This document shows, piece after piece, positions 6,775 through 28,770 of a DNA stretch of 36,044 nucleotides. A program made the position numbers and the translations under genes. Positions within the stretch are counted from its first letter, which is position 1; the number at the start of each line of letters is the position of its first letter. The stretch lies in NCBI GenBank assembly GCA_964525635.1, contig CAZGJX010000036.1:1-36044 (forward strand). The letters run 5' to 3'. The DNA is from an uncultured archaeon. Its GTDB lineage: Archaea > Asgardarchaeota > Lokiarchaeia > Sigyniarchaeales > SOKP01. A model generated the notes under the pieces. It worked only from the letters and a program-made list of their open reading frames with translations, was not told the DNA's origin and did no database searches.

Positions 6775-6943
6775 CCCTTACGGGATTCCTTACAGAGGCT
6801 TTGCTCTGCCGCATATTGGGTTTACCATGTTCCGTGTGTTTGACTTTAAACAATACTCTTAGATACTTGCTCTCTCACGACTGAACTACGGACGGAAAAG
6901 CAATAAGACGTCATTATCGCTTACTGTCAGCATTGCCTTTTGG

Positions 6944-7938
6944 GTCGAGTAGGTCAGGGCTGTTGCCAGCCCTTTCCCCTCTTGGAACCACACGTGCGAC
7001 TTTCATCGCATGTGGCTCGAGCCTGAAATATCCCACACGTCACCGTGTCCTTCTTCGGAACTCGTGTCACCACTATTCCGTCAAGGAATCCCGTCACCGT
7101 TTTCCTTTGAAAAGGATTTTGGGGTTTAAAGAATCCCATCTTCTCAATTACTCTCCTTAGCAATTTAAAGAACTTATTGAATGGCGAGTTCAATACTTCC
7201 TTCTCTTCTAATCCATCGGATTAGGTCAATGGCATCATTATTGTCTACCTTCTCCTTTTCTGATTGTCGGGCATATATTTGATGCACCCACGACAATACA
7301 ATGGTCATAAGTCTTGAGAAAATCTTTTTTTTTTTTCTCTTTCAGACCTGCTGGATGTCTGCATCCTTTCAGATTGGGTATCCTCCACTATAAATTATTC
7401 TTTCATTATAGTAGCCCCTATCCACTCAATTACAGAGTGGCTTTCGCTTTTTCCAGCATCCTATATCCGCTAAGCCTTCCCTCTCCCTTACGGTTGAGAT
7501 ACCATTCCATTTTAATGTATGGGGCTTATCGGACTTACCATGTTCCGTATAATTAACTTTCACCAACTCCCTTAGGTACCCAATCTCCCCCGACTGTTCT
7601 ACGGTTGGAAAGACATTAAGCCATGAATAATGTCTACTAACAGTTTTGCTATTTTAGCCAGGTGTATCAATGCTTTTCACCTGCACTGATTCACGAGGTT
7701 TATCATGGGTTCACTTTCGTTTACCATAGAGGTCATGACTAGCCCACAGTAAGAGTGCATTCTCCCCTGTTGGTTCATTGTCTCCAGAGCTTCATACCCA
7801 GTCGTTACCAACCACGCATGTCCGGATAGTCACACTTATCCAACTTAAGGTCGGTTTCTTGAGAGCTTATCTATTGACAAGCATATCATTTGGTAATACT
7901 CAAGGTTCCGCATTCAATCATACAGCTTCATGTCACAC
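6944..7938 (-). mobile_element. Group II intron 2, ORF-less (995 nt), nested in domain I of intron 1
   Basis: 5' end GTGTGACATGAAG at 7938; domain V GAGCCACATGCGATGAAAGTCGCACGTGTGGTTC (7018-6985); ends CCTACTCGAC at 6944; EBS1 CATGGC (7625-7620, in an AGACATTA/TAATGTCT stem-loop) is the perfect complement of the flanking GCCATG (7944-7939). Confidence 0.9.
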
Positions 7939-8543
7939 CATGGCATATCAATGCATTTCGCCACTGCGGATTTACGTGGTTTACTCGCAAGTTCATTCTC
8001 TTTACCATAAGGATCTTGGGTTAGCCTGCAGCCGGAGTGCATTCTCCTCTGTCAGTACATTTTCCAACGCTTAGTACTCTGTCATTACCAACAGCGCACC
8101 CATGGACAACCACACCTATCCGTTTTAGGATCGTCTTCTTGGATGTTTATTTACTAATAAACCTACCATCTTGGTAATTTCCAAGTTTACGCATTCAAAT
8201 ACACGACTTCATGTCGCACGACACCAAATCCTCAATCATGAATGATTATTAGTAAATTTTAATTAATTTCATATTTAAATATTTTTTCATCATCTCCATC
8301 ATAACATCCCCAAAATAGTGAAAAAATAAACTAAGCCAGATTAATAACAAAAAAAATAATTTTATTAGTGAAAATACTTAATATGTAGTTAACCAACATA
8401 TAATTTTAATTACTAAAAAATAATTCAAGGAACAAAAAGGGGTGATTAATAAGACTGGAAGTATGATTTTAAGAATATAATGAAAAAAAAATTTTCTTGA
8501 AGTTTTTTAGTAAATTTATATACTATAAGTGGGTGTTTTAAAC

Positions 8544-8915: not shown

Positions 8916-9015
8916 ATGTCCGAATTACTTTAAACATTTTTTTAACAAGTTAATTTCTTTTTTTTTCCGATTAATTGAATTTTTCTTTAAAATCTTAATC
9001 ACATTGATAGCTTCC

Positions 9016-9052
9016 ATTTCAATCTTCTTTCTGAAGCTATTTTCTATGTTGT
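9016..9052 (-). CRISPR. Solo CRISPR-like repeat
   Basis: ACAACATAGAAAATAGCTTCAGAAAGAAGATTGAAAT on the - strand; matches copies at 16616, 16689, 22353 and 23197; ends in ATTGAAAN. Confidence 0.65.
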
Positions 9053-9154
9053 ATTGATAAAGAGAATGATTCGAATAAAAGATTATTTTAGTAGGAATTG
9101 TATATATTTAGTAAAAATTTTTAAAAACCTTATAAAGAAGTAAATTCGATACAT

Positions 9155-9574
9155 TTAAGGATATTCAGAGGTATCAAGGTTAAAGAATTGATTATCATCA
9201 TCAATATAATCAAGACATTCTTTTAAAGATCCATTTATTAAGGTAATCCATTGCCCATTGTGTCGTTGCCAATCTGCTGTACAATCTATTCCCTTTTTGT
9301 CATATAAGGTAATTCTAGCAAAGATAATTTCGTTATATTTCCCATCAATCAATGGTTTTATAAAAATTGCTTTAGGATCGTTCCATCGGAATGGTTTATA
9401 TAAATAATAAAGATAAATTCTTCCACCTCGAATATCAATTCGATTAATTCTATTTGATAATTTTTTAGAATTTGATATAAATTTTTTCACATCATTCATA
9501 ATTAAAATTTTATCTCTTGGATCTAATTTAATAGGTTTTGGAGGGATCTTAACCCAAACTTTATTTGATGGCAT
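9155..9574 (-). CDS. Hypothetical protein
   Basis: 139-aa ORF with normal composition; no recognised motif. Confidence 0.65.
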   Translation of the reverse strand: MPSNKVWVKIPPKPIKLDPRDKILIMNDVKKFISNSKKLSNRINRIDIRGGRIYLYYLYKPFRWNDPKAIFIKPLIDGKYNEIIFARITLYDKKGIDCTADWQRHNGQWITLINGSLKECLDYIDDDNQFFNLDTSEYP

Positions 9575-9791
9575 AATCTAATTTAATTTTGTATTATTTT
9601 TATTTTAATTTCTTGAGTCTAAAAAGTAAGGCTTTTTAATATTTTTATTTTTATCTTAAAAAACATATTAATCGACTCAATTTAAATGTAGCATATCCAG
9701 AATTTATTAATATTTGATGTCAAGAGTCCTGAATAAATATGATTATTTAATTTAACTTTACTCAACATAATTTTTAGTAGAGATAATATTA

Positions 9792-10184
9792 TTATTTTAT
9801 TAACTCGAGGCGTTCCTTATAATTTTTAAATTGATTTGAAAGAATTCGATGTTTTATATCATCCCATTTTTTTCTGTAAAAATAGAAATACTCAGAGATG
9901 TCTAAAAGATCGCCAAAAATTATCTTATAATCCTGAATGATTGAAATTTGAATATACAAAGGTAAGAGTTCAAACACACGTATATCATATTTAATTGGAG
10001 CAATCCCAAAAAGATCAAACTGTAGCGTCTTTAATTTTTTTTTATCTCTTAAGTAAGATAACACTGCAATATCAATATCAGAATTAGGTCGTTCATTATT
10101 ATTAATTAAAGATCCATATAAAACAACATCATACTTATTTTTTATTGGTTTAAGTACCTTCCTTATTTTTTCAATCCTTATCAA
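9792..10184 (-). CDS. Minimal nucleotidyltransferase (MNT) antitoxin
   Basis: LYGS...RPNSDIDIAV polbeta-type GS/DxD motif; overlaps the HEPN gene. Confidence 0.88.
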   Translation of the reverse strand: MIRIEKIRKVLKPIKNKYDVVLYGSLINNNERPNSDIDIAVLSYLRDKKKLKTLQFDLFGIAPIKYDIRVFELLPLYIQISIIQDYKIIFGDLLDISEYFYFYRKKWDDIKHRILSNQFKNYKERLELIK

Positions 10185-10581
10185 AATCTACTAACATCTC
10201 TTCAATTTCATTCATCCAATTCATTAATAACATATTTACATCATTAATTGAGTCTAAAATAATATCTTCTTCTATATTGTTATATCTATGTACAATAATA
10301 TTTCGCATACCATTTGCTTTTTTTAATTCTTCACCTAATTTCTTATCAATTTTTCTTTTTTTTACAAATTCAGAAATATTATTTTCATCATCCTTTACCG
10401 GAATTCCTAAATCTTTAACTGACATTGCAACTAAATCCACTAGTGATTCTATAGATGTTTGAAGGGAATAGAAAATTCCAAGCTTTTCTAATTCATTTTT
10501 TGGCTCAACCGATAATAATTTCATGCAATCTACAATATAATTAATCTTATCTCGATATCTTTTTTTTCGGAATTCATCCAT
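10171..10581 (-). CDS. HEPN (DUF86/HepT-like) RNase toxin
   Basis: Rx4HxY motif RNIIVHRY; LQTSIESLVD helix. Confidence 0.88.
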   Translation of the reverse strand: MDEFRKKRYRDKINYIVDCMKLLSVEPKNELEKLGIFYSLQTSIESLVDLVAMSVKDLGIPVKDDENNISEFVKKRKIDKKLGEELKKANGMRNIIVHRYNNIEEDIILDSINDVNMLLMNWMNEIEEMLVDFDKD

Positions 10582-10814
10582 TTTTATCTGTAGTTATCTT
10601 TATTTTTTTCTACTTATAAATAATATGGCTTTTTAGATTTATTAATTTTAAGAATACATAATTTTTGACAAATTTGAATAGATTATTCTTTAAAAATTTG
10701 GAAATCTTGTATTGAATTAAATTAAAAAACTCATGATTGATATTTAATTTTCTTTTTATCAGTAAAATAAGAGTGAAACTCTATATTTTTATGTATATTC
10801 CTAATAAATAAAAC

Positions 10815-11290
10815 TTAATAATATATATCTTTATTTATTTTTATTTGGATCATATACCCACCTAGCAGGTTCTACTTTAAAAGACCAAACATCTTTAAAT
10901 GGATTTGTATGTTCTATTAATTGTTTAGATTTAAGAATCTCTTGTTCGCCTTTTCTACTAATTTTACGATCCATTGTTCCAAAAATAAAAAAATTATTTC
11001 CAATGATTTTTGGAAATTTTTCTTCACATAGACAAGTAAGAAGATGTTCAAATTTCTCTTTTTTTTACAATAATTAGATCATAATCCGGACAATAATTAC
11101 ACGTCATATTTAATATTATAAAATGATTGGGTTTAACATTTATAACTAAACAATATTTTCTTATTTTGGTTATTATTCTACATTTTGGGCACTTAGTAAA
11201 AGCATACTCTGTATATGGATTTAAAAATAAGTAATATTTTGATTTTAAAAACTTTATATCAGAAAGATATCCTAGGTCCTTTTTTTTCAT
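10815..11290 (-). pseudogene. Cys-rich hypothetical protein, frameshifted in a poly-A run near 11060
   Basis: CPKC...CNYCPD N-terminal part; the alternative frame continues EKFEHLL...FGTMDRK...FKDVWSFKVEPARW to a TAA at 10815. Confidence 0.55.
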
Positions 11291-11318
11291 AAAAATTATC
11301 TTTACTTAGTAAATTTTC

Positions 11319-12621
11319 CTTAGTGTCCTATAATAGTTAAAGTTCACCTCCTTTCTTAATGTATATCTTATAAAAATATAACTCTCGAAAAGTCCAGATA
11401 TGATTTGTAATACCAGCACTTATCAATGGTGTCTGGTCTCTCCATTTCTTCGACTTCATAGGATTACTTATCCGTAAGGTTTGATGGGGACGAATAAAAT
11501 GATAGTAATCAAGAAAAAGATCTAATTGAGATAAGAATAATTCATTTTTTTTGGAGAATTGTAAGGTTTTACGTTGAAATCTACCATTCTGTTGACGAAT
11601 GGTTAGGTTATGTCGTTCAACAAAAGTGGTATTAACAGAATTACTCACATGTAAGTCCAAAAGGATCCCTTTTACCTGAGTTGCTGTTCAAAAAATAAGA
11701 TGAGTATCAATCTTTTTTACTCTACCCTGCTATCGATGTTTATGAACTTGTGCATATACGAGTGTTGGAGGGCTCTCCTTGATGGGCTTTTTTGGACGAC
11801 CCCTCTTTCCATTTTTCGGAAAAACTCTTTCAATACCGTATTCTTCAAGAATGGCAGAAGTAAAATGATCTAATTCATCACTTGTGAAATAGGGGTTTGT
11901 CTCTGAAACTCTATCTTGAAGAATATGGAGCAATTCTCTTGCTTTTGGAAGAGTCCTCTTTCCAACTGTGAACGCTACGACAACTTTATGTATAGAATCA
12001 AAGGCAATCCAAATCCATGCATCTCCTACTTGGCCTTCCAAATATTCAAATTCTGTTAAATTTTTTTGTTTTTTTAATAAAACTCCACATCTCATCTAAT
12101 TGGCATTCTTTTAGGGGTTAGTTCTTTAGGAAGAACCGAGAGACTTGTTCTGAATATGTCCCAAATCATCGAATAATTTTTGTTACAGTATCATGATGGA
12201 CATTGCAGATATGAGCAGTTGCACGTGTACCATTTCCTTCAACAAGACAACGAATAATCGTAAGAATTTTCTCTTCAGGTAAATGAAATCCAAAAAAGGG
12301 AGTTCCTTTTCGTTCAGAAAACGTTTTTTACATGTTTTACATACAAAAAGATTTTGAGATGGTTTTTTCCCATATTTACGTCTAAATAGGATATTACCTT
12401 TCCCTATTATTCCAAATGTTTCACAGTGTTCATTTGGACATGCTAATTCTTTTGATTTTTGCTCCATTAGCTTTTTATATTGCTCTTTATCCTTTTCTTG
12501 TGGGAATTTTATTTCTTGTAGTAACTTATTTTCTATCATATAACTCACCATAAGAAGAGAGGATAAATATTACTATAAAAGAAAGTGATCTAGAGATATA
12601 TAAGAATTATAGGACACTAAG
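11319..12621 (-). mobile_element. IS1-family insertion sequence (1303 bp)
   Basis: 16-bp TIR CTTAGTGTCCTATAAT (11319-11334 / 12606-12621); 8-bp TSD AAATTTTC (11311-11318 / 12622-12629). Confidence 0.88.
11337..12551 (-). pseudogene. IS1-family transposase, fragmented
   Basis: Zn-ribbon ACPNEHC...CKTC; QLDEMW; WIWIAFD; FTSDEL; NTTFVERHNLTIRQ; spread over several frames. Confidence 0.85.
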
Positions 12622-12690
12622 AAATTTTCTTTCTCTATAAAAAATAAAAAATGATAGGGATTACTTTATTCTATAAGGATATTTCTTTGA

Positions 12691-13029
12691 TTCATAACAT
12701 TTACTAAACCAAAATCAAATGATCCAATTTATGATCAATTTTTTAAGCAACTATGTACGTATGCATTTATATTAAAATTGCGTTATGGAAAAACTTCAGC
12801 AAGACTTTTGTTTTATTGGCCCTCTGAAAAGAAGCACAGCAATGCATTAATGGAATTTAGATTTACTGAACAAAATATTGAGATTACAGGAGAATAATTT
12901 GATAATATCGTTTCTAAAATACAAGAAAAACAATTTGCTGTTAAAATCCTCCCAGAATTTAAGGTCTGTAATGAATGTGATTTTAGAATGTATTGTAAAA
13001 ATGAAAATATAATTAAATTTAAAAATTAA
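12691..13029 (+). pseudogene. C-terminal remnant of a PD-(D/E)XK (Cas4/AddB-like, Fe-S) nuclease domain
   Basis: Manual translation gives ...KQLCTYAFIL...LFYWPSE...(TAA at 12895)...KVCNECDFRMYC; QLxxY and CxxCx5C motifs; not in the ORF track. Confidence 0.7.
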
Positions 13030-13061
13030 TTCTTAAATAACATATCAAAAAGTGAAATCAG

Positions 13062-14939
13062 ATGGTAAAAATTGATATTAATAAGATTGAACTTGTTTGG
13101 CCTGCAAAATTCGATGATAAAGGAAAAATAAAAAATATTGATCGTTTATATCTTCCTTTTCAAATAATCGAGAGAATAGATGAGGCACAATCCATTCGTG
13201 AAGCAAAAATAGATGGGGTTCAAAAAACACTTTTTGATTATTGGAATATTAATGAAAATGTAATGGATAAAGAATGGAAAAATAAGTTGATCTGGGGAGA
13301 CAATAAAATTGTAATGAGTTCGTTGCTAGAAAAATTTGCAGGTAAAATTAATCTTATTTACATTGATCCTCCTTTTACTACTGGTGCCGATATTAAATTA
13401 AAAATAAAATTAGGCACAAATAATGAAGAAACAGATAAAGAGCATTCTATTTTAGAAGAGAAAGCATATAGAGATACATGGGGATCGGGTTTCGATTTTT
13501 ATTTAAGATATATGTATGAGAGATTAGTTTTAATGAGAGAGCTCTTAGCAGAAAATGGTTCCATTTATATTCATCTGGATTGGCATGTTGGACATTATAT
13601 TAAATTAATCATGGACGAAATCTTTGGATATGATAATTTTAGAAATGAGATTGTATGGAGATATGGTAAAATGGCTTCTTCTACAAGAAAATTTTTATCA
13701 AATCATGATATTGTTTTATTTTATTCCAAGACTGATAAATTCATTTTTAATCCTCAATTTTTAAAACTCGATAAACCAATCAGACGTTTAGCCAGAGAAG
13801 TAAAAGATGGAAGATTAGTTAATAAAAAAGATAAAAATGGAAAATTAGTATATATTAATAAAGACATTAAAATTATTGATGATGTATGGGATGATATCCC
13901 CATTGTTATGCACGCAAGTCCACAGTTTTTAGATTTTTCTACTCAAAAACCAGAAAATCTTTTAAAAAGGATTATTCTAACTTCTTCTAATCCAGAAGAT
14001 CTTGTTGCTGATTTTTTTTGTGGCTCAGGGACTACATTAGCTGTGGCCGAAAAATTAAATAGAAAATGGATCGGATGCGATCTTTCTCGATATTCAATTC
14101 ATCTTACAAGAAAAAGGTTGCAAGAAATTAAAAACTCAAAGGATCTTATTAAAGAAAAATCTACATATAACAATAAAGTAAAACCTTTCGAAATTATCAA
14201 CCTTGGAAAATATGAAAGACAATTATGGCAAGATAATAGCTTTAGTGGAAAAGATAAACAAACTATATTATATGAATATCTTGCATTTATTTTGAAATTA
14301 TATGGTGCTAAACCTATCATGGGATTTACTTATATTCATGGTAAGAAAGGAAAAGCGTTAATTCATATTGGTTCAGTAAATTCACCCGTTACGATTGAGG
14401 AAATATTATCTAGTATTAAAGAGACTATTCAAGCGGGAACTAATGAACTACACATTCTCGGTTGGGAGTGGGAAATGGGTCTACATGACCTAATCGAAAA
14501 AGAAGCAACAAAGGAAGGAATAAAGTTGGTTTTAAAATTGATATCAAATGAAGTAATAGAAGAAGAGGCGGTTAGAAAAGGAGATGTAAGATTTTTTGAT
14601 TTAGCTTATTTAAAAACAAACACTCATATAAATGGAAAAACTGTTTCTATTGAATTGACGGATTTTGTAATTCCTAATATAGATTTAATTCCTAAAGATG
14701 TACGAGAGAAAATAACAAAATGGTCTGATTATATCGATTATTGGGCTGTTGATTTTAACTTTAAGGAGGATACATTTGTGAATCAATGGACCTCATATCG
14801 AACTAAGAAGAATAGAGTACTTAAATTAATATCTGAATCATATACATATAATGAAAATGGAACATATAAAATTTTAGTTAAGGTAATCGATATATTTGGG
14901 AATGATACATCTCAAGTTTTTGAAATCGAAGTGAAATAA
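13062..14939 (+). CDS. mod: Type III restriction-modification Mod subunit (beta-class DNA amino-methyltransferase)
   Basis: LIWGDN; IYIDPPF; STQKPENLL; ADFFCGSGTT; C-terminal KVIDIFGND. Confidence 0.9.
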   Translation: MVKIDINKIELVWPAKFDDKGKIKNIDRLYLPFQIIERIDEAQSIREAKIDGVQKTLFDYWNINENVMDKEWKNKLIWGDNKIVMSSLLEKFAGKINLIYIDPPFTTGADIKLKIKLGTNNEETDKEHSILEEKAYRDTWGSGFDFYLRYMYERLVLMRELLAENGSIYIHLDWHVGHYIKLIMDEIFGYDNFRNEIVWRYGKMASSTRKFLSNHDIVLFYSKTDKFIFNPQFLKLDKPIRRLAREVKDGRLVNKKDKNGKLVYINKDIKIIDDVWDDIPIVMHASPQFLDFSTQKPENLLKRIILTSSNPEDLVADFFCGSGTTLAVAEKLNRKWIGCDLSRYSIHLTRKRLQEIKNSKDLIKEKSTYNNKVKPFEIINLGKYERQLWQDNSFSGKDKQTILYEYLAFILKLYGAKPIMGFTYIHGKKGKALIHIGSVNSPVTIEEILSSIKETIQAGTNELHILGWEWEMGLHDLIEKEATKEGIKLVLKLISNEVIEEEAVRKGDVRFFDLAYLKTNTHINGKTVSIELTDFVIPNIDLIPKDVREKITKWSDYIDYWAVDFNFKEDTFVNQWTSYRTKKNRVLKLISESYTYNENGTYKILVKVIDIFGNDTSQVFEIEVK

Positions 14940-14944
14940 TTCAA

Positions 14945-15650
14945 ATGGCATCATACATTAATTATGATTGGGAAATACCCCAAATTAAAGATCGAAAAGC
15001 AAATGAAAACCCTGATTCTTTTCTTATTAAGGAAGGGGATAATTATGTCATCAAAATAGGTCGCCGACCAAGTAAGATTTTCCTTGTTGATGGAATAACA
15101 GAGTTCGTTGATAAATGGTCCGGATAAGGATATCCAGGGATTTCAAATATACTAAAACAGCTTCTAAATTATTCGTTTAAACAAAATCACCTTATAAAAT
15201 GGGGTGCTTTTTTATTTTTATTTTGGTCAACAAGAAGCTGGAGAAACAATTATATATCTTTTTGAATATAAAAAATTTAAAGATATTACTGAGGTTATTA
15301 ATGAATATTCACACTTGGAATTAGATCTTGGTCCTGGGAGGAATTTCAACGAATTATCTTTAATACCTCCTTCTTTAAAAAGTAAATGAAATTTTAATAT
15401 AATTCTCCGAGGTGAAAATAAATCTATTTACCCCTCTGGAAATTGATTTTTAACAAATATACAGCAGATTTATGAATCCCGTGAAAAGGAATGGCCCCCT
15501 CAAAATGTAGTAGACTCCATTTTGGGAAAAAAACCCTTAAAAGATTTGTCTATAGGTTCGATTTCTTTTCTAGAGCAAGTAAGAATACTTGATAATTTAA
15601 TGATATTAAATGATGAAACACATCACGTCCATGATGATACGCTGGAATAG
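14945..15650 (+). pseudogene. Type III R-M Res (SF2 helicase) remnant
   Basis: Directly after mod; VDKW..*GYPGIS, YFGQQEAGETIIYL and LMILNDETHH (DEAH-like, about 15600-15630); stops, frameshifts, no Walker A. Confidence 0.75.
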
Positions 15651-15690
15651 TTTTCTACGACAAACAGGTCAATCCATAGTAAAAGCGGTT

Positions 15691-15734
15691 GTGTACTCAT
15701 AGGAAGCCATAATCTTCAGGTTATGGCAGTACAC
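15691..15734 (+). mobile_element. Putative IS200/IS605-type right end (omega-RNA 3' end) remnant
   Basis: Hairpin GCCATAATC-TTCA-GGTTATGGC preceded by GGAA and followed by AGTACAC, which is complementary to GTGTACT at 15691-15697. Confidence 0.5.
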
Positions 15735-16109
15735 TTATATTCTATCAAAGTTTTGAAGTTTTTCTATATAACTCTCTAAATATATTAATTTTAAGCGGGG
15801 TTCTACTACTTGAAGATCTATAAAATGAGAATCTTCGGAAACTAAAACCATATTTTTTTCTACTGTAATTGTCCCAATTAAAATATCAATTATGGGTATT
15901 GGTGTACCATTTTTTCTTAGAAGAAGAGCATATTTTAAACTTTGCTCATAGTGTTTGAAAATAGGATATATAATAGAAATTTCCTCAAATCTAGAAGCAA
16001 TTGGATATTCTATTAAAGAAAAAATAGTTGTAAATGTTAGATCTTTCTTGAAAGGAATAATTTTTAACTTATTACATTTAATTAAAATATTTGTATCAAG
16101 AACCCACAT
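15735..16109 (-). CDS. vapC: PIN-domain VapC toxin
   Basis: VLDTNILI, conserved E, DILIG, SEDSHF. Confidence 0.88.
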   Translation of the reverse strand: MWVLDTNILIKCNKLKIIPFKKDLTFTTIFSLIEYPIASRFEEISIIYPIFKHYEQSLKYALLLRKNGTPIPIIDILIGTITVEKNMVLVSEDSHFIDLQVVEPRLKLIYLESYIEKLQNFDRI

Positions 16110-16115
16110 AAGATT

Positions 16116-16400
16116 CTAACCTCGTTCAAGCTTTTGCTGAGTTTCGATTCTTTCCTTTTCCATTTGTTTAGTCTTTTTATGAAACTTGTGCTCTTCCATT
16201 TCATCTAATTCTTTAATCATATTAAGAACCTCAGGATCCAAGTTTTTTCTAAATTCTTCTATTTGTAATATATCTGTTTCTTCCATTTTTTTAAGATATT
16301 CAATGATTGAATTCCTAAGAATTTCCGTCCACTTGATTTCTGGATGTGCCTTCATCTTTTTGTGAATATCATCATCGATACTAAAAGTAACATTTGTCAT
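16116..16400 (-). CDS. vapB: VapB-type antitoxin (RHH)
   Basis: MTNVTFSIDDDIHKKMKAHPEIKWTEILRNSI, an archaeal RHH antitoxin pattern; directly upstream of the PIN gene. Confidence 0.8.
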   Translation of the reverse strand: MTNVTFSIDDDIHKKMKAHPEIKWTEILRNSIIEYLKKMEETDILQIEEFRKNLDPEVLNMIKELDEMEEHKFHKKTKQMEKERIETQQKLERG

Positions 16401-16615
16401 AAGGAAAATAAGGTATTTCCCTTATTTAAGTATTTTCAGGATAATATCATACATTTAAATATTTTAATGGTAATTACTATTCTTTGAACCGTATTATTTT
16501 AAACTCATAAATACCATTTATTAATAATTTCCATCGTAAATATTTGTTTTAATCTTTTTTTGAGACTATTTAGGTTACTTTAAGTAAATAAATGCTATAA
16601 AATTATAGCAAGTAA

Positions 16616-16725
16616 ATTTCAATCTTCTTTATGAAGTTATTTCTATGATATTATATTTTTCAAATACTTCTTCTTCAATTTTATGAATATTTCAATCTTC
16701 TTTATGAAACCATTTTCTACTCTGC
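16616..16725 (-). CRISPR. Mini CRISPR array: two divergent repeats and one 37-nt spacer
   Basis: Repeats at 16616-16651 and 16689-16725 (73-nt period) share ATTTCAATCTTCTTTATGAA on the + strand; spacer 16652-16688. Confidence 0.72.
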
Positions 16726-17177
16726 ATTTAAACCCGATAAAAGGCAAATTATTGCTGAGATCATGCACGAATGTGTCGCTTATGGGAATCCTCCTTGCTA
16801 GATTGTTCCGATATTATGATTTTCCTGAAACAATAAAAACAAATATGAAGCTCGAGCAAGGGTTCAACAAGGAAAAGCAGAAGTTATACAGCAAGGTTGC
16901 GAAAGCAAACCTGGCTCACATGTTAGCAACACTGGGTAAGGATTAAATATACATCAAAAATTATGCTCCTGAAGAACTTAATATTGATATCGTGAAAGAG
17001 TACTGCGAGGAAGTCATCAAGCAGTTGAGGGCAGTATTGCCTAAGGAGATCAAGCACTCAATGATCCTGAAACGCCCTTGGAGTAGGAAATACCTAGGGC
17101 TTACTATTCCAAACATAACAATACTATCACTAATACGGAAAAAAGGAGGGGTTGTTTTTGTCGGAAACAAAGATTAA
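16726..17177 (+). pseudogene. Truncated gene fragment, possibly a transposase C-terminus, with one in-frame TAA
   Basis: ORFs 16683-16946 and 16992-17177 are in the same frame; locally higher GC; begins abruptly at the CRISPR repeat. Confidence 0.3.
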
Positions 17178-17316
17178 TTTTCAACCTCATAATCAAACCC
17201 TTGGTTGAGAAATTTTTTATTAATCCTCTAACAATTAATATTATTAATCTCAAATCTCATTTTTAAATAATCATTTATAGTAAAATTTTTTCAATTTAAT
17301 TGTAAGGATAACCCAC

Positions 17317-17793
17317 ATGGAAAGGATAGATTTCGAACTAAGCAGAGCAGATCTTGTAAAATTATTTGGTGATACTAAAAAAAGAATGAATCTCTCTACA
17401 CTCTATAATGAGCAAAGAGCATATGTGAGTAAATTACGAATTATATTACATGGTTTTTTGAACTATTTAATTTCAAAAAAAAAATTACCTAAAATAGAAA
17501 GTGGACATGTATTAGACGATGTTGTTCTCTTTCTCCAAGAATATCATTTAGGATATTCGGAGGAAGCTTTAGACGAGATTAATTTTACTGAATATGAATC
17601 TTTCTTTGAATATTTTGTTGCTAAAAAATGGTTCGGAGTCACACCAGAACAAGTTAAATCGCTTTGTCATAGTTTACAAATTTTTGTTGAATTTTTACGG
17701 GAAAAATTAAGTTTTTATCAGAAAGAATCAATTTTCAGAAAAATTTTAGATTCTCTTAATTCAGAACGCTATAAAGATTTGTTAAATCAATGA
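17317..17793 (+). CDS. Hypothetical helical protein with an integrase core-binding (SAM-like) type segment
   Basis: Clean ORF; FFEYFVAKKW...VKSLCHSLQIFVEFL. Confidence 0.6.
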   Translation: MERIDFELSRADLVKLFGDTKKRMNLSTLYNEQRAYVSKLRIILHGFLNYLISKKKLPKIESGHVLDDVVLFLQEYHLGYSEEALDEINFTEYESFFEYFVAKKWFGVTPEQVKSLCHSLQIFVEFLREKLSFYQKESIFRKILDSLNSERYKDLLNQ

Positions 17794-18037
17794 TTTGGGG
17801 TAAAAAGAGTAATACAACAGATTAGAGGGTTTTATTATTAGAAAAAAAGAAAACTATCGGGGAATTTAGAGAATAATAAAAAGAAAACAAGAGTAAATCA
17901 TGAACTATAAAAAGATTTTAAAGAATAAAAAGTTACAATCTCAATTAGCTCGTAAATTTTTAGATAAAGAAAAATAGAATTTAAAGGATTTTTGGTTAAT
18001 TTTCCAAATGAATGATAAATTATAAATTATCCTCTTT

Positions 18038-18545
18038 TTATTGAATCTCAAGAGTGCACCCCTGACTCATTAAATGGGCTAATTCTGGAGTGATTAAATC
18101 GGAATTAATGAAATCACCCCGTATATTCCTGGCTATTTCTACTTTTAATAGCAATTCAGGCTCGTTTCTGATAATTACAAAACCGCGTATCTTATTTTCA
18201 ACTGCAAATATCGTTTTTGGACCAGAAAGCTTCAATAATGATTGAAGAACGCTATTTGAACCTTCTCCCACGTTATTTTGGATTGTCTTTCGGACAAACA
18301 GTTCAAAAATCTCTTGTAATACGGAGATTATTTTTGGGTTTATCTTTTTACTGAATTTAAGCGTCTTTCTATAGGGATCCACCTTCACATATCCTCGCGA
18401 CCCATTATAGAATATTTTAAAAAGCCCTTTCTTTCCATGTTTCTTATTATTATTCGATTTTTTCTTTTTCTTTGATTTTTTTTTTGAACCTTTTGGTCTG
18501 CCGCGTTTCCTCGATGGTGATGGGCTAAGTAGCGTTTTAGAGAGG
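18038..18545 (-). pseudogene. Probable transposase C-terminal fragment
   Basis: RKRGRPKG basic motif followed by stops; QNNVGEGSNS resembles the (T/S)NNxxE motif around the DDE catalytic Glu. Confidence 0.4.
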
Positions 18546-18718
18546 GTATAATAAAATGCTCGCTTACTCCTTTTTCAAAAAAAGGGAATCAATTAATCTC
18601 GATAGCACCATTTTTTTACGAATAATAGTTTCTATTGATACTTATTACGAAATATGAACCTATTCGGATAATAATTTAATATTGAATAGTTTTAAAATTA
18701 AAAAAGGAAGGAAATAAA

Positions 18719-19990
18719 GTGGATGTATATAATTATGATAACGATAGAGAGGATGATACCTCATTTTATGACGAGTTTAATCAGTTAGAGGTAGAATATA
18801 TGTCTTATTTAGAAGGAAAAGGACACAAAAAATCATATGTCGAAAATCAATTAGACTTAATAAAATTTTTTGTAACTCGTTATCTAATTGCTCATGTGGA
18901 TCAGAGTATATTCGAAGTCGATGGATATGACATATACGACTTTTTGGGAAGTTGGTGTGTCCTTAAAGTATATGATCATAAAAAAAGCTCAATTATTCCT
19001 TATCTAAGGGCTTTTAAAAAATTTTTTAATTTCCTTTTTCATAAAAAAAAGATTTCCAAAGACCAGTATATAGATTTAATGGAAGAATTTAATAATCCTC
19101 GTAAATATGTAGAAAAATTTGAGCGATTCATGGACACAGACACTGAATCTGAGACGAGAGCTGATGATTTTGAAGCTTGGTATTATGATGAAAATTTAAA
19201 GAGAAAATATGATCTGAAACATGAGTTAAATTTATTATTGAAATCAGAAAGGGAAAATATTAATAGACTTCCAGAAAATTTAATAGATAAAATCTCAATC
19301 GTAAAAGACTTTAAGACTTTCGGAAATTATATTTCAGGTTTAAATCATGGAATTGGATTGACGCAAAATTTATTCTGTTTGAAAAGAAATGACATTCTTA
19401 AGCTAAACTCACTGATGAGCGAACCTGAAAATTTGAAAAATAATATTATCCAAAAAGAAACCACTCTAATTCACTTCTTATTTTTAGCCTCTAAAAGATT
19501 AGGATTGTTTACTTATTCAAAAAAGATGCATTTAGTTCCAACACTGTTGTATGATAATTATTATTTGAAGCTTTCAAAAAAAGAACAATATTGGTTATTA
19601 TTTCGGGCATTATGGGATAAAATAAATTGGTATCGTTTAAATGAATATAGTCTGAGTGGGAGACCAGATTGGACATATAAGAGTAGATCTATATGTGCTT
19701 TATTCTTTTCTCGCTTAAATGTTGATGAATGGCTATCTTATAAAGATCTCATTGATTTATTTAATGATTTCCATGGTGAAAAAAATATATTTTCCCCAAC
19801 ATGTGGATTTAATTTATTTTGGTTTTTTCGAATAAGGCTCTTTTCATTATTCCAACATTTTGGATGATTTGATATAAATGTTATCAAACAGAAGGAATCT
19901 TGCTATAAGGATTTAAAGTTGAAAGTTAAACCACTTGGGAACAATATCTTTACTATCCTCTCAGAATCAGATTATGTTAAAGCAGATTAA
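18719..19990 (+). CDS. Hypothetical protein with an N-terminal integrase SAM-like domain; probable premature TGA at 19865
   Basis: YMSYLEGKG..KSYVE...IYDFLGSW...YLRAFKKFFNFL; the frame continues 40 codons past the TGA (..VKPLGNNIF..) to a TAA at 19990. Confidence 0.6.
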
Positions 19991-20429
19991 AAAGGAAAGT
20001 TAAATTCATTAAGAAATAGAAACTGGTTGAAATTATCTATATAATCAGATATTCATAGATTAAACCAAGCGAGTCCTAGTTTAGGATCTTCTTCCATTTT
20101 TTAATAAATCTATTGGTTTATTTTATTATTATTGTAATTTAAATAGATTATTAACAATATATTCTTACATATATTTTCTCAGTTGATGTGTTTGGATGAG
20201 TAAAATAATTATTCGAACTTCGAATAATAATTTGGAAAAATGCTTTTTGGTGATAACAAGAATTCGAAGTGATTTCATTTTTTAATGATTCTCGTCAGGT
20301 CCATTATAAAGTTCAAGTCTCATTATAACATTTACATGCCTCTTCTATTAATAAATTATAAATATAAAAAATTTGATGAAAAAATAAGTTCGAACTCCCT
20401 TCTTAAATAAAGTGAAAAAAGGAAATATA

Positions 20430-22130
20430 TTAATTTAATGATATTGCCTTATTGAGTTCTTGTTGAAAAGCTCTATGACGGGGAAATTTATTTTTGTAGG
20501 TATCAATAATAATATTACCCTCAGTTTTACCCATTCGACTGGAAATTACTTCGGATAATGCTGCTATCAAATTTGCTGCTTTTTTATAACTATTTCGGTA
20601 TTGGTTTTCAACTATAGCATTCACTCGATTCTTGACCTCCTTACTACATAACTGTAAATATCTTTCTGCTTCTGTATTAGGAAGATGAACAGAAGAAAAC
20701 ACATCATTCATTATTCTCTTATACTCTTTATCAATGTCGTGCTTGCTGATGTCATATAAACAAGCATTTTCAACCACCCAATTCCAAAGAAATTCTAAAT
20801 TTGGCGATTGGAAACCTTTTTTTTTAAGAATTTTAAGAAAAAATGGAACAATAATAGCTTTAGGATTACGTAATCCACTCCAACCCAAAAATCCCTCTTT
20901 TTGACATAAATTAAAGGCTTCCTTAAATTTTCCATCCAATAAATATATTTGACAGAGTAGAGTAATTGTTGCTGAAGCCTTATCCTCTCTATACCTTATT
21001 TGCAATGGTTTAACGGATATGGATTCCTTATCCTTTTGTAGCAGATAATTTACTCTTTCTATAGCTATATTGATCTCATCTTCATACCTACCCAATCGTT
21101 TTGCAATAGGGATAAGGTAGATAAGTTGTAATAATGATGGATTAGAGATAAATGAGTAATGTAAACCCTCTAGTTGAACCTCTAAATCGTCAATCATTTT
21201 GCCTGCTCGGGCAAGACCTTTGGCAATCTCCGATCTTATTGTATATTCCTCTGGTATCTCATTAATACCTTTTCTAGCAGCTTCTATCATCCCTTGATAG
21301 TCTCCTTTTTCTTCTAATATAGCAATCCAATCGAGGTATGATCTTGGATGGTACTTGCCCTCGTTTATTGCTAAACTTTTGATCCCTTGAATCCCTTCCT
21401 TTATCATAACGGCTTCACGTAAGAGGTGGCTGGCAAAAGCACCTTTAGATTTTTTTAGGAAATCTATCCACGCGGATAAAAAGGAATCAAAATCAGGAAG
21501 AGGTTTCAATAAAACATTTATTATATTTTTCATATTTAAATCTTCATCCACCTTATAATAATTAAATCTCTGCATTCCTTCGAATAATTCTTGAGGTCTA
21601 TTTATTAAAGGGGTAGATAGGTAAATCGCACGAAAATATAGTGCTCGAACCTCATCAAGGTCGTTTTTTACCATTTCCCATGGATCTTGACCCGGAAGAT
21701 GTCCTGGTTCTTCAGCCATATCAAGAATATCGAATATTTTAGAATATGCATCTCTTGCAACCTTATAATCGCCATTCATTATTGAATTTTTAGCCCTGCT
21801 GAAAAAGTCATCGACTTCTTCTACCCAACTCTCATCCCCCCAGTCTCTCGAGTCTTGGATCTCATCATCCCATCCCCACCCATTGCAAAATGATCCATCC
21901 TCAACACGTTCCATCAAGTCGTCAATATCCTCCAATAATTCATCATCTGTAAATGATTTTACTTTCACTGGGGGAGGTCTAATTTTTTGTAAGAAAATAA
22001 CTCTTTCATTTGGGTGTGTATCTCTTGCCCATTCATAAAGGATGTCTCTGAGGATCTCTACAGAATATCCTTCCAATTGTTCTTTAACCTGATCCATGAA
22101 TTCTTTAAAACTAATTTCTGGCATTATCAC
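20430..22130 (-). CDS. Hypothetical alpha-helical (TPR-like) protein, 566 aa
   Basis: Long clean ORF with helical-repeat character; C-terminal FPRHRAFQQEL. Confidence 0.75.
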   Translation of the reverse strand: MIMPEISFKEFMDQVKEQLEGYSVEILRDILYEWARDTHPNERVIFLQKIRPPPVKVKSFTDDELLEDIDDLMERVEDGSFCNGWGWDDEIQDSRDWGDESWVEEVDDFFSRAKNSIMNGDYKVARDAYSKIFDILDMAEEPGHLPGQDPWEMVKNDLDEVRALYFRAIYLSTPLINRPQELFEGMQRFNYYKVDEDLNMKNIINVLLKPLPDFDSFLSAWIDFLKKSKGAFASHLLREAVMIKEGIQGIKSLAINEGKYHPRSYLDWIAILEEKGDYQGMIEAARKGINEIPEEYTIRSEIAKGLARAGKMIDDLEVQLEGLHYSFISNPSLLQLIYLIPIAKRLGRYEDEINIAIERVNYLLQKDKESISVKPLQIRYREDKASATITLLCQIYLLDGKFKEAFNLCQKEGFLGWSGLRNPKAIIVPFFLKILKKKGFQSPNLEFLWNWVVENACLYDISKHDIDKEYKRIMNDVFSSVHLPNTEAERYLQLCSKEVKNRVNAIVENQYRNSYKKAANLIAALSEVISSRMGKTEGNIIIDTYKNKFPRHRAFQQELNKAISLN

Positions 22131-22352
22131 TCATAAACTTTTTAGAATTAAAAAATTTATTTCTTAGATTTGTATATATATTCAATACTATTCTAATTTA
22201 TTTTCATTTTCACTAAAAAGTTCTTACAATGCATCCCTGATATTCTCTTACATGTTTATTAATTCATAAAAAGAAATTCTAAAAATAGAAAATAACAAGA
22301 ATATTAATCGAGTTATTAAATAAAATCTAATCTGAGATAAATACTATTTCCC

Positions 22353-22389
22353 AACGAAAATTTAATAGCTACAATAAGAAGATTGAAAT
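22353..22389 (+). CRISPR. Solo degenerate CRISPR-like repeat in the opposite orientation
   Basis: AATAGCTACAATAAGAAGATTGAAAT matches 23 of the last 26 nt of the 9016 copy. Confidence 0.5.
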
Positions 22390-22446
22390 ATAACACTGAT
22401 TAAATTTAAAAAGTTAAAGGCAGGAGATTTATTTAGGATTTATTTT

Positions 22447-22653
22447 TCATTTAAATCTCTTATGATAACATCTTTCGATAAACATGCCAAATGGCTCTTT
22501 CCAAGGTTCAAACTTGTTTGGAACTAATTCTCCAAACTTCTTCGGATTTAATCCAAGTTTATTAGCAATGTCTATTTGGCGAGCGTTAAGCCGATATTTT
22601 GTTTTAGTAATTGCCCGAGGATTCTTGTGTTTATTTTTATTGCTTTTTACCAT
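22447..22653 (-). CDS. Small basic hypothetical protein (HTH-like)
   Basis: YRL...QI.IA.KLGLNPKKFG.L......PWK.P...FIE..Y.KRF; GGAGG upstream of the start. Confidence 0.7.
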   Translation of the reverse strand: MVKSNKNKHKNPRAITKTKYRLNARQIDIANKLGLNPKKFGELVPNKFEPWKEPFGMFIERCYHKRFK

Positions 22654-23196
22654 GATTATCCCTCCATATTAAAATAATTATTCGTCATTCTTTAATAAGT
22701 TACTTTACCTTTTTTTGGTCAAGCAACGTAGTAACTTCCTTGCAGCAGCACTCTAGTCACGAGCTTACCCCTAATTCACTCTTTTTTTTTTCATAATACT
22801 AATATATATAAATCAAAAATGCAAAAATTTTTTCTAATTTATCATGATTTTGATAAAAAGATTTAAATTTTAAAAGTTCTTTGGGTTTGTTCGAAAATAA
22901 TTTCCCTTTCTTAATTGGGCTTCAATATATTTGCAGTGGAATTTCTAAAATTAATCTTTATTTCCAATGAAATAGAAATAATTCTAAATGGCATTATCTG
23001 GAATCATGTTCTTATTTCAGGTAAAATGGAAAGCGGTTCCAATGGAAATATAATAAATGGCCTTAGTTTCTACTGAAAGTAACTCTGATTCAATTAGATT
23101 TCTGTAAATAGTCATTTAAAGGATATATAAACTATATAGATGGATTATGAATTATTTTATTTATAAAAGAATAAAGAGATACATTCAAGGTTCTAG

Positions 23197-23233
23197 ATTT
23201 CAATCTTCTTTCTAAAGTTATTTTTTATGCTAT
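23197..23233 (-). CRISPR. Solo CRISPR-like repeat 80 bp upstream of cas3
   Basis: ATAGCATAAAAAATAACTTTAGAAAGAAGATTGAAAT on the - strand. Confidence 0.65.
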
Positions 23234-23261
23234 ATTCACATACAAGAAACCAAATATTATA

Positions 23262-23311
23262 ACCATTTTGGTAATTACCATTTTGGTAATTCCTTTTACC
23301 AAAAGGAATTA
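23262..23311. promoter_or_regulatory. Tandem and palindromic operator-like elements before cas3
   Basis: ACCATTTTGGTAATT twice (23262-23291), creating the palindrome TGGTAATTACCA; inverted repeat TAATTCCTTTT-ACC-AAAAGGAATTA (23287-23311). Confidence 0.45.
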
Positions 23312-23313
23312 TT

Positions 23314-26037
23314 ATGATAAATAATGAAATATTAGCTAGACCTGGACAATCCCTTCAGGAACATATAAATCAAGTATTTCAAATTTCAAATGATAGATTA
23401 AATTTACTAAAATTAAATATAGAATCTTTTCTAAACGAATTAACCAGATTTTCTTTAGGAATAATATCATATACTCATGATATAGGAAAAGCAACAAAAT
23501 ACTTTCAGATATGGATTAAATCAGAAAAAAATAAATCCCTAGATTCTAAAATACTGAAAAACCATAGTCTTTTTTCATCAATTTTTACTATTGCTACTTT
23601 CTATGTATTAGACAGTTATATAAATGATGATTTTAAAAGTAAATTTATTCAATCCAGTAATTATTCATATATATATAATCATTTTGCTTATATTAGTCAG
23701 CTAATTGTGAGAAGTCATCATAGCAATCTTAAAAATTTATGTACAGTAAATGTACTTGATTTTAATGAAGAAATTATTTTAAGACATAAAAAAAGATTAA
23801 AAAATAGTTGTAAAGAGTTTATAATTAAACTATATAATGAAATAATACTCCCAAATATTTTTAAAAACAATTCTATAATAATTACCAAAAATTTTCAAAA
23901 AAGTTATGAGAATTTTAACCAAATTACAAAGGATATCTTTAGTACTGTAGAAAGGATATTAAATGACCAAAAATTCCGTTTTAAGGAATTATATCATAAT
24001 TTATATATGTATCAAGGAAAAATTCTGGGAATATCTAAATATCTCTCATACAAGATTTTTTTTTTAGGAAAACTAATGCATTCAATTTTACTTGAATCGG
24101 ATAAAATGAACTCCACAATAGGGATAGGATTTTCTATCTCAAATAATTTAACTACGAATAGATTTAATGAAATTCTTAAAAATTATCTTATTAAAAAAAA
24201 ATATCTCATTCCAAATGAAACATTTAAAGATAATTTTATTGACATTAATAAAAAAAGAAGATATATATTAAATAAAGTAAACAATATGGCAGAGAAAATT
24301 TTAGAAAACACAAGCCTTATAAGTTTGCTTTCTGTTCCTACTGGATTCGGAAAAACTTTTTCAGGATTATGTTATGCAAGTAGTATAAAGTCTCCAAGAT
24401 CTAATTTTGAATGTAATAATTTTTTTCAAATTAATCCCAAAATAATATATGCACTTCCTTTCCTTAGTATTATAGAACAAGTTGAGTTAACCATTAAACA
24501 ATTTTTAGGGATTATTAATAAAGGGTATAAAAAAATTGAAAGTACATCTTTCTTAACTCACCATCACTTAACTGAACCTATTTTTAATTTAGAAAATAAT
24601 AGAGAATATGATGAATCTACTGCTGAACTCTTTATAAAAAGTTGGAACTCACAATATATCCTTTCAACTTTTAATCAGTTATTTAATGCTCTATTCAAAA
24701 CAGATAAAAATTCAGCAATAAAATTTTCAAAGATAATTAATTTTACTTGGATCTTAGATGAGATACAATCAATTCCTCTAAAATATTGGAAGATTTTAGA
24801 AGAATCCTTATTAATTATGAATAATTTATTTTTTGTTAACATTTTAATGATGTCAGCAACTCTTCCGAAGATATTGGATATCAATAAATTAAAAAATAAT
24901 AGCACCCCTCAAAACAAAAAAAAAATAATTGAAATCATAACTGATGAAGATTACAAAAGGATATTAAATGGAATTAATAGAGTAAGACTTGAATATCATG
25001 GAACTATTGATTTCTGTTCATTTCTAAAGAATTTAACAAACACTATTCAAGGTTATGTAAAAAAAAAGATAAATTTATTGATTGTATTAAATACAAGAAG
25101 ATCAGCTCAATACACATTTAATTATATAAAAGATTATGTAATACAACAAAAGTCAATAGAAAATAAAGTTCATATAGAATTTCTTGCAGCTACTCAAACA
25201 CCCAAACGTAAATCTAAAATAATTGAAAAAATTAAAAATTTAATTGAAAGTAATACAGATTCTGTATTTAAAAAGAAGAACAAGGAATTAATAATTTTAA
25301 TTTCAACTCAATGTATTGAAGCAGGTATAGATATTGATTTTGATATTGTAATAAGAGATTTTGCACCTTTAGATAGTATTATCCAAGTTGCTGGAAGATG
25401 TAACCGCAATAATAGAGATGATATTTCAATGGGAATTGTTAAAATATATAAGATAAAAGATGATCAAAATAAAAATAAAAGAAATTTTTGCCAATATATA
25501 TATGATTCTCACTTACTTAGATTAACTGAAGAAATTTTTCAAGAAACTCGAAAGAAAGATTCTTTTCCATATCTTTACGAAGAGAAGGAGATTTATACTA
25601 TTGTGAATAAATATTATGAAAATATCGATAATTTCTTTAAAGATGGAAAAATGGAAGAAGAAAGATTAAAATATCAAAGTTATATGTTAAAATTTGAATA
25701 TTTAAATCTTTCAATGGATTTTAATTTAATATCTAATATGAATCCATACAGTATATTTATAGAAGAAGACAAAGAAGCTATTGAAATAATCAAAAAATAT
25801 AAATCATTACAGTTATCTTTTAAGAATAGTAAAAATACACAAGAGTTTCCAATAAAAGAATATAATAAATTATTATGGGTTAAAAAAGCTATACAGAAAT
25901 ATATTATAACAACATATCTAAGTGAAGATGAAAAAATAAAGCTAAAAAATATTGATAAGTTTGGAGATTTATATATTCTATCGTATAAGGATTTAAAAAA
26001 CTTTTATTCAAATGAAATAGGTTTTTATATAAATTAA
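23314..26037 (+). CDS. cas3: CRISPR-associated helicase/nuclease Cas3 (HD + SF2)
   Basis: SLQEH, HDIGK, SHH, VPTGFGKT, DEIQ, SAT, STQCIEAGIDIDF, QVAGRCNR. Confidence 0.95.
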   Translation: MINNEILARPGQSLQEHINQVFQISNDRLNLLKLNIESFLNELTRFSLGIISYTHDIGKATKYFQIWIKSEKNKSLDSKILKNHSLFSSIFTIATFYVLDSYINDDFKSKFIQSSNYSYIYNHFAYISQLIVRSHHSNLKNLCTVNVLDFNEEIILRHKKRLKNSCKEFIIKLYNEIILPNIFKNNSIIITKNFQKSYENFNQITKDIFSTVERILNDQKFRFKELYHNLYMYQGKILGISKYLSYKIFFLGKLMHSILLESDKMNSTIGIGFSISNNLTTNRFNEILKNYLIKKKYLIPNETFKDNFIDINKKRRYILNKVNNMAEKILENTSLISLLSVPTGFGKTFSGLCYASSIKSPRSNFECNNFFQINPKIIYALPFLSIIEQVELTIKQFLGIINKGYKKIESTSFLTHHHLTEPIFNLENNREYDESTAELFIKSWNSQYILSTFNQLFNALFKTDKNSAIKFSKIINFTWILDEIQSIPLKYWKILEESLLIMNNLFFVNILMMSATLPKILDINKLKNNSTPQNKKKIIEIITDEDYKRILNGINRVRLEYHGTIDFCSFLKNLTNTIQGYVKKKINLLIVLNTRRSAQYTFNYIKDYVIQQKSIENKVHIEFLAATQTPKRKSKIIEKIKNLIESNTDSVFKKKNKELIILISTQCIEAGIDIDFDIVIRDFAPLDSIIQVAGRCNRNNRDDISMGIVKIYKIKDDQNKNKRNFCQYIYDSHLLRLTEEIFQETRKKDSFPYLYEEKEIYTIVNKYYENIDNFFKDGKMEEERLKYQSYMLKFEYLNLSMDFNLISNMNPYSIFIEEDKEAIEIIKKYKSLQLSFKNSKNTQEFPIKEYNKLLWVKKAIQKYIITTYLSEDEKIKLKNIDKFGDLYILSYKDLKNFYSNEIGFYIN

Positions 26038-26078: not shown

Positions 26079-26885
26079 TTATATTAAATATTTAAAAATC
26101 TGAAGAACTAATTGTCCTTTTTCAGTAATAAAAAATTTTTTATTTCTCTTATCCTTGCTTATTCTGATATATTTTAGCTCTTTTGCGAGTGGTTTTAGAA
26201 ATCGTTGATTTAATTTCATATAGTAACTTGCTTGTCTAAATCGAGGATCATAATGTTTTCTCTCTAAATCAAGAAAACCTTTTTCTATTAATACATTCAA
26301 TAAGATTTTTTTATATATGAAAGGATTAGAAGGTTCAATATCTTTATCTGCATATTTATTAGTCATAGTTTTATGAATTATTTTAAGAATTCTAATAAGA
26401 TTTTTATTGGGTTTTTGAATTGGGAAGATTTTAGGCGTTTGAAATAATAAATCCCCTTTATGAATAGCTCCTGAGTTAAAAGGATCATATTTTGTTGAAT
26501 AAAGATAGATAAGGTCACAATTCCAAAAACGGGAAGCTTCCGTTGATGCTATTGCGGTAATTTTGGATCCTATTCCAATATTGATAAATAATTTGCAATT
26601 AGGATCTTGAGTTCTCTCAGTATAAATAATTTTTGAAACTTCTTGAATAGTTTTAATATAATTGGTATAATCTTATTCTTGATGGACAATTTCCAAAGAA
26701 GGTATTTCCTTTTCTAGAAAGTTTATATTTTCATGATAAAAATCAATATTTTCATTTTTTTGACCTGTTTTTTTTATAAATGCTGTAAAATAATAAACCT
26801 TATTTGGCTTATAAAAGAGAATTGGTTTTGTTATTCTTTTAGTTTCTTTACTATTAAATACAATTTGAATATTTTTCGAAGCCAT
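26079..26885 (-). pseudogene. Csa3/DUF6293-like regulator (CARF-like Rossmann + wHTH) with one in-frame TAA at 26673-26675
   Basis: ORFs 26673-26885 and 26079-26366 are in one frame joined by open codons (INIGIGSKITAIAS..ASRFW); C-terminal wHTH LKPLAKELKYI...ITEKG. Confidence 0.7.
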
Positions 26886-28726: not shown

Positions 28727-28770
28727 TTATTTCACCTTAATTATTATATTGAATTGTTTTTAATTAATAT

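Follow-up and report, generated by a model that had tools for sequence, protein, structure and literature searches.

The DNA analyzed here, hereafter the window, is a 36,044-nt contig (C36; CAZGJX010000036.1) of an uncultured archaeon of the Lokiarchaeia, order Sigyniarchaeales (assembly GCA_964525635.1, here G000). It carries five dispersed copies, A to E, of a 37-nt CRISPR-type repeat, set among toxin-antitoxin and other defense genes. These copies are probably fragments of the genome's own CRISPR array, whose repeats would serve as recombination joints for gene cassettes, leaving residual CRISPR RNAs (crRNAs). The window is one whole contig of the 245 that make up the G000 assembly (4.45 Mb, 27% G+C). 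Other contigs of G000 are given as C followed by a number, genomes of relatives as G, and loci as L; features of the window are collected in Table 1.

Repeat copies in the window and the array of the host genome

Exact copies of the repeat's 3' 14 nt were found at five places, starting at 9016, 16616, 16689, and 23197 on the minus strand and at 22376 on the plus strand. The mean of a shuffle control was 3.2 matches even with two mismatches allowed, and five exact copies exceed chance. Counted over positions 1-37 against the terminal repeat of the genome's own array, the copies differ from it at 3 (A), 6 (B), 3 (C), 10 (D), and 4 (E) positions. The five places reported by a first-pass annotation, which was made from the sequence of the window, are thus real copies of this repeat. 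Every copy in G000 that scored above a reversed-genome control lies on C36, C81, C194, or C240, each of which bears cas genes or an array, and the repeat is therefore not a genome-wide background motif. A further candidate, a 14-nt repeat core 52 nt past the permease stop codon, was not above background (p = 0.12) and was rejected.

The annotation had described the copies as solo units, a description that fits only D and E, for which no decayed partner was seen. B and C form a repeat-spacer-repeat followed by two decayed units, the second of them probable, and then by a vapBC toxin-antitoxin pair, while the partner of A is doubtful. No leader lies upstream of B, and the remaining 3' quarter of a transposase-like gene reaches the 5' edge of this repeat; B-C and the decayed followers are an array tail cut from its head. 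The transposase remnant has 72% DNA identity to locus L161 of G130, and its identity as a transposase was assigned by eye. With the AT-alternating leader end common to five active arrays as the reference, a leader end was found to be absent from A, B, D, and E.

The host array consists of a leader and three repeats on C240 and of five more repeats with which C81 begins. Directly behind the array on C81 stand a CARF gene and a type III-D operon; this contig also holds a three-unit mini-array (C81:15245-15437) and decayed repeat copies between successive genes. The genes cas1, cas2, and cas4 are on C197; Cas7 (Cst2/DevR) and Cas8b are encoded on C194 and cas5 and a second cas3 on C202, together a type I-B Cascade with cas3. 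The earlier statement that there is no array and no cas1/2/5/7/8 is thus true of the window but not of the genome, and cas3 and cas6 of the window, which had been called orphans, are not. The window cas3 is a leftover of another I-B lineage, and the Csh2-type cas7 and cas8 that would be its cognates in G001 are without match in the G000 assembly. The Csa3-like gene behind cas3 carries an in-frame stop. Repeat E lies on the strand opposite to cas3, in the same relative orientation as the array and cas3 in G001.

Other features of the cas loci were also recorded. In the type I-B operon of C194 (L054), cas8b is flanked by two DevR-type cas7 genes, and G001 likewise has two cas7 paralogs, of the Csh2 type. 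In both genomes a decayed mini-array of two to three units stands immediately upstream of the Cascade operon (L054:35-199 in G000; L030:13270-13390 in G001), which is the classic CreR position; no target was found for it. On C202:1-460 a cas6 start breaks off after 30 codons and is followed by ~220 nt similar to the sequence upstream of the Csa3-like gene in the window and, where the contig ends, by a second cas6 start. Between E and cas3, the 80-nt interval (23234-23313) contains two or three adjacent palindromes (folding z -3.2), which are possible operator sites and were not found at the cas loci of relatives.

Repeat-bounded gene blocks in related genomes

The repeat was present in 14 of 36 sampled members of the family. 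In G001, G002, G003, G005, G009, G017, G036, G077, and G114, short arrays or solitary repeats, almost all of them on the main array's strand, stand beside MNT-HEPN, AbrB-PIN, RelE-type, or DUF433-type pairs, the toxin-antitoxin identities being mostly assigned by eye. When scored by eye, 18 of the 29 short units from 11 genomes border on a toxin-antitoxin gene, compared with ~1% of G000 intergenic regions, a figure that is an undercount.

Two genomes of a different genus, G077 with five units and G114 with three, also have the array tail in front of vapBC. Each of these tails has its own repeat type, the spacers are unrelated across the three genomes, and the homology between G077 and the window begins 2 nt past the last unit. 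No repeats were seen at 13 more distant vapBC loci. G114 has kept the tail and vapBC though its cas6 has two stops and cas1 was not found, and units are likewise kept in G005 and G009, in which neither cas1 nor cas6 was found.

In the congeners G001 and G002, and in G036, the same kinds of blocks lie between repeats in a different order; the overlapping blocks of congeners are the permease, a phosphoenolpyruvate (PEP) utilizer, a RelE pair, an AbrB-PIN pair, and an XPB-DUF790 block. In five cases the edges of homology fall 1-5 nt from a repeat (L028/L029, the L045 duplicate, L097/L108, L097/window, and L013/L028). Spacers were shared with none of the loci compared. Spacer B had no exact 28-nt match in viral contigs and a single match with 3 mismatches among 134 relatives.

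Two loci of relatives deserve separate description. At L045:14647-17139 (G036), two solitary repeats, each with its own leader, each precede an MNT-HEPN pair and lie within a 531-nt block that is duplicated at 91% identity and ends at the repeat. At L032:338-1016 (G020) and L036 (G033), an insert of ~660 bp with a 195-aa open reading frame (ORF) of no family sits inside one spacer. On either side of the insert is a direct repeat of 22 bp from the core of this spacer, an arrangement that looks as though a small circle had recombined into its matching spacer.

Conservation of the repeat hairpin and handle

When folded, the repeat forms a 4-bp stem (positions 17-29) with an 8-nt handle after it; Cas6 would be expected to cut in front of the handle by analogy with known type I-B/III processing. 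The handle is intact in all five copies, and the stem is intact in A and C, contains a wobble pair in B and E, and is broken in D. Changes number 0/70 at positions 24-37, 10/60 at positions 12-23, and 16/55 at positions 1-11, the first two differing with a Fisher p of about 3e-4 for copies that are not independent. In a set of 45 dispersed units from six genomes, which were gathered by position-neutral criteria and are related to one another, the stem changed at 17/360 positions compared with 93/900 at other internal positions (p about 0.001); the handle does change in this set (34/360).

Variation at positions 1-14 and 22-24 is also seen in the active arrays of 15 relatives; imported variants can therefore mimic drift, and A and E carry a repeat variant found in G001. 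The 3' 14 nt unchanged in the five copies are invariant among these active arrays as well. The earlier contrast between an invariant 3' end and drifting 5' halves is borne out by the counts, but the extra decayed units have decayed 3' ends, so that the invariance stems in part from the way in which the copies were detected. The 5' drift is partly a junction scar, in B and probably in D. Taken together, the better-kept 3' halves suggest past or continuing selection by Cas6.

Proposed origin of the dispersed repeats

We propose that the array was split by gene blocks, in many cases type II toxin-antitoxin pairs, that became lodged between repeats of the same strand. Recombination at or next to the 37-nt repeats would then have duplicated, deleted, and swapped blocks within and between related species; recombination between short repeats has been documented in Sulfolobus (PMC4390879). 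The outcome would be leaderless tails such as B-C with its decayed followers, a near-solitary unit (A), and solitary repeats (D and E). Without a leader such pieces would gain no spacers, would no longer be homogenized, and would drift. Slower drift of the hairpin arm and the 8-nt handle would most likely reflect cleavage by Cas6, in the past and maybe still today, of read-through transcripts into ordinary crRNAs directed at old invaders. Addiction modules resist loss and could help the adjoining fragments to persist. We favor the conclusion that the repeats mark joints at which toxin-antitoxin and other defense blocks lodged and were exchanged between related species.

Several observations weigh against this proposal. 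No pair of empty and filled sites was found for any window copy, D is inverted, and the G000 assembly is itself split into many contigs. Some blocks, among them the permease and the RelE pair, have their edges 30-100 nt from a repeat or at the ends of genes. In 19/19 homologous loci of relatives, the HEPN-MNT pair near A is free of repeats, so that its link to the repeat is not general, and G020 and G033 have several short arrays with their own leaders and without toxin-antitoxin pairs. A test for selection at the RNA level, comparing C-to-T wobble with G-to-A changes, gave only a trend (9 vs 3, p = 0.15).

Alternative explanations

The first-pass annotation had proposed a dispersed regulatory network. 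Under such a scheme, Cas6-cut crRNA-like RNAs (crlRNAs) would load the I-B Cascade, repressing the promoters of vapBC, cas3, or further defense genes, and release of the toxin would be an alarm for loss of Cascade. The hairpin and handle are kept, a Cascade is encoded in the genome, E stands back to back with cas3, and a B-C unit lies upstream of vapBC in three genomes, as in the type I-D cargo loci of Shmakov et al. 2023 (10.1101/2023.03.03.530964), where spacers also vary. However, characterized crlRNAs match ~16 nt with a protospacer-adjacent motif (PAM) beside the regulated gene, and no comparable match was found. Searches of spacers and guides against the whole G000 genome gave no promoter match above chance, and for A-E none of 18 named local promoter regions exceeded shuffles (p = 0.32-1.0). 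The vapBC promoters of the three genomes, G077 and G114 included, contained no seed match, and ~60 units from relatives, searched over 5 kb around each, gave no seed match with a consistent PAM, although the PAM of the system is not established and very short matches could escape. A C81 mini-array spacer (L001:15282-15300) is antisense to a 70-aa ORF 750 nt away (L001:16011-16029) at 17/19 nt, which is at chance level given ~60 guides. The spacers at the orthologous vapBC site are unrelated, the leader end is absent from the copies, and the unit is kept in G114 with its broken cas6. The regulatory network is thus without support from these data, and we consider regulatory guides rather unlikely.

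The lack of a target would matter less if the repeats were cis-acting Cas6 cut sites that set the ends or stability of read-through mRNA, or if their RNAs soaked up Cas6 or Cas7 as RNA anti-CRISPRs (Racrs) do. No target is needed here, in line with the negative searches, and several units lie 7-170 nt past a stop codon on the same strand. We nevertheless regard these roles as very improbable, as the units show no orientation bias, the stem of D is broken, no virus genes were recognized in the window, and the only match of the repeat pattern in viral contigs, at a gene junction, was due to chance.

An enzyme could also have built these loci. In an integron-like capture system, Cas1-Cas2 or another recombinase would insert whole cassettes at the repeat and duplicate it, the cassettes being in effect giant spacers. 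Whole transcription units do lie between successive repeats on C81 and in G001, G002, and G036, the cargo is strongly biased to toxin-antitoxin genes, cas1/2/4 are present, and the conserved palindrome could be read as DNA. The layout resembles integrons and clusters of attC sites lacking integrases (CALIN) in that a single kind of site bounds the cassettes, whose order differs among relatives. In contrast to those systems, the repeat folds into a 4-bp stem rather than the long imperfect hairpin of attC, and the cassettes are not co-oriented with the sites (17 vs 13 downstream and 14 vs 7 upstream; not significant), which argues against read-through expression as in integrons. No integrase family matched among the 22 window ORFs scanned, the rest of the genome not having been searched; junction repeats are often truncated rather than cleanly duplicated, and long duplications that include leaders or trailers fit homologous recombination better. 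Such a capture system is therefore decidedly unlikely. It is unlikely, too, that the Lokiarchaeia repeat is a gene-capture site at which a specific enzyme, Cas1-Cas2 or a host recombinase, places toxin-antitoxin and defense cassettes between repeats, their expression being tied to CRISPR by Cas6 cleavage at the repeats on either side.

At the other extreme, the copies might be pure neutral debris under no selection after fragmentation. Pseudogenes lie all around (Csa3-like, Res-like, and remnants of insertion sequences (IS) and introns), fully decayed units exist, and units persist without cas genes. The annotation had set its network against simple debris, and an array broken by insertions, the picture that it named as telling against the network, is largely what was seen, but the decay is not uniform. 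The difference between the 3' 14 nt and the adjacent positions, the pooled stem signal, and the invariance of the same positions in active arrays make purely neutral decay highly improbable.

Other features of the window

Table 1. Repeat units and genes of the window
Feature	Position	Strand	Remarks
CitMHS-family permease	710-2005	-	90% DNA identity to a gene inside the G001 repeat chain; homology ends at the stop codon
Possible decayed second repeat after A	8928-8965	-	Weak, p = 0.007; ~50 nt downstream of A
Repeat A	9016-9052	-	Near-complete; 102 nt past the DUF3024 stop; 2 differences from the G001 variant adjoining the shared permease cassette
HEPN (HepT-like) and MNT toxin-antitoxin pair, then DUF3024-like gene	9155-10581	-	
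Type III-like methyltransferase, then stop-ridden fragments	13062-15700	+	Methyltransferase intact; fragments probably of the Res partner (by eye)
PIN/VapC-like toxin	15735-16109	-	Below curated cut-off
vapB-like antitoxin	16116-16400	-	Below curated cut-off; pair starts 216 nt past C
Probable fourth unit of array tail	16470-16506	-	Very decayed; aligns with last unit in G077; weak
Third unit of array tail	16546-16581	-	Decayed; p = 0.001 vs intergenic background
Repeat C	16616-16651	-	36 nt; one base deleted in 5' tail; intact hairpin and handle
Spacer between B and C	16652-16688	-	37 nt; no target found
Repeat B	16689-16725	-	First few bases probably foreign (junction)
Transposase-like gene, 3' quarter (of 575 aa)	16726-17195	+	Cut off at 5' edge of repeat B; no leader
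Repeat D	22353-22389	+	Inverted vs other copies; most of 5' 11 nt foreign; broken stem
68-aa ORF between D and E	22447-22653	-	No family; no match in 134 relatives; look-alikes in Atlas are for the most part bacterial hypothetical proteins
Repeat E	23197-23233	-	Solitary; back to back with cas3 at 80 nt
cas3 (HD and helicase)	23314-26037	+	Intact ORF; I-B Csh/Hmari lineage; 63% identity to G001 cas3
Csa3/DUF6293-like gene	26079-26885	-	In-frame stop
cas6	32389-33264	+	Intact ORF; only full-length copy found in assembly

Stacked group II intron copies occupy window positions 2400-8300, with one intact ORF for a reverse transcriptase-maturase (2654-4111) and an IS4-type transposase nested inside; an Rfam scan of the window matched only group II intron domains (three matches). 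A SWIM zinc-finger gene and an SNF2 helicase form a pair at 27695-31875, and proteins without a family, encoded at 17317-19867 and 33340-35544, share similar helical domains.

The two ends of C227, which encodes an XPB helicase and DUF790, overlap both window ends over 55 nt; the resulting 38.6-kb loop is the sole one of its kind in the assembly. C43, a chromosomal contig with an EF-1alpha-like gene, also joins C227 and has ~200 nt in common with the window start at 95% identity. From these overlaps, the window block is either bracketed by duplicated XPB-DUF790 or able to circularize; it may be an integrated or excisable island, or the overlaps may come from a mixture of strains. The layout fits growth of the region by homologous exchange.

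Relation to known systems

Standalone repeat units (SRUs) and mini-arrays with toxin-antitoxin cargo are already known: Shmakov et al. 2023 described both in CRISPR-cas loci, including type I-D cargo mini-arrays upstream of toxin-antitoxin genes, and suggested that SRUs may aid recombination between loci (10.1101/2023.03.03.530964). The window resembles these in having units near cas genes, a degenerate distal repeat, downstream toxin-antitoxin cargo, and variable gene content. It differs in having many units at each locus, in alternation with cassettes, in lacking any detectable promoter target, and in the breaks of homology at its repeats. Like the crlRNAs of CreTA, CreR, and CRISIS (10.1101/2024.12.27.630466; 10.1101/2024.01.05.574328), the copies combine a degenerate repeat and a kept cleavage end with adjacent toxins or defense genes. 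The cognate type I effector is present (Cas7 Cst2/DevR, Cas8b, Cas5, and Cas3 on C194/C202), as are the 5' handle in every copy and the processing hairpin in all but D. The match of spacer to promoter with a PAM, which is defining in those systems, was tested here and not found. Racrs (PMC10651486) share with D and E the form of solitary repeat mimics but are carried by viruses and plasmids away from cas genes, whereas the window copies, two of which are not solitary, lie in a chromosomal defense region beside cas3 and cas6. The window is linked to a chromosomal contig by assembly overlap, and no viral copy was found.

Closer parallels come from arrays associated with addiction modules or foreign DNA. 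Type I toxin-antitoxin systems lie beside arrays in Clostridioides difficile (PMC5961336), and in the Sulfolobales vapBC occurs within cas cassettes and an 899-bp insert separates two repeats of locus F of S. solfataricus (PMC4390879). These cases share with the window addiction modules tied to arrays, foreign DNA between repeats, and recombination between repeats; unlike them, type II toxin-antitoxin blocks are here repeatedly bracketed by repeats and reordered between species. The repeat is also an insertion site that splits the array for S. pyogenes phage AP1.1, which integrates into CRISPR repeats (10.1101/2020.10.09.333658), and for Tn7-like transposons that target repeats (PMC11837452). 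The window differs in that no integrase or Tn7 machinery was identified and in that the cargo consists of small gene blocks. No description of repeated bracketing and reordering of toxin-antitoxin blocks by CRISPR repeats was found in the literature searched.

If arrays are routinely places where addiction and defense modules land and are exchanged, this would explain the growth of defense islands around CRISPR loci, and it would caution against taking each standalone repeat close to a toxin for a regulatory guide. With at least 11 genomes, this Asgard family offers an unusually rich natural series bearing on whether such exchange proceeds by plain recombination or is driven by an enzyme.

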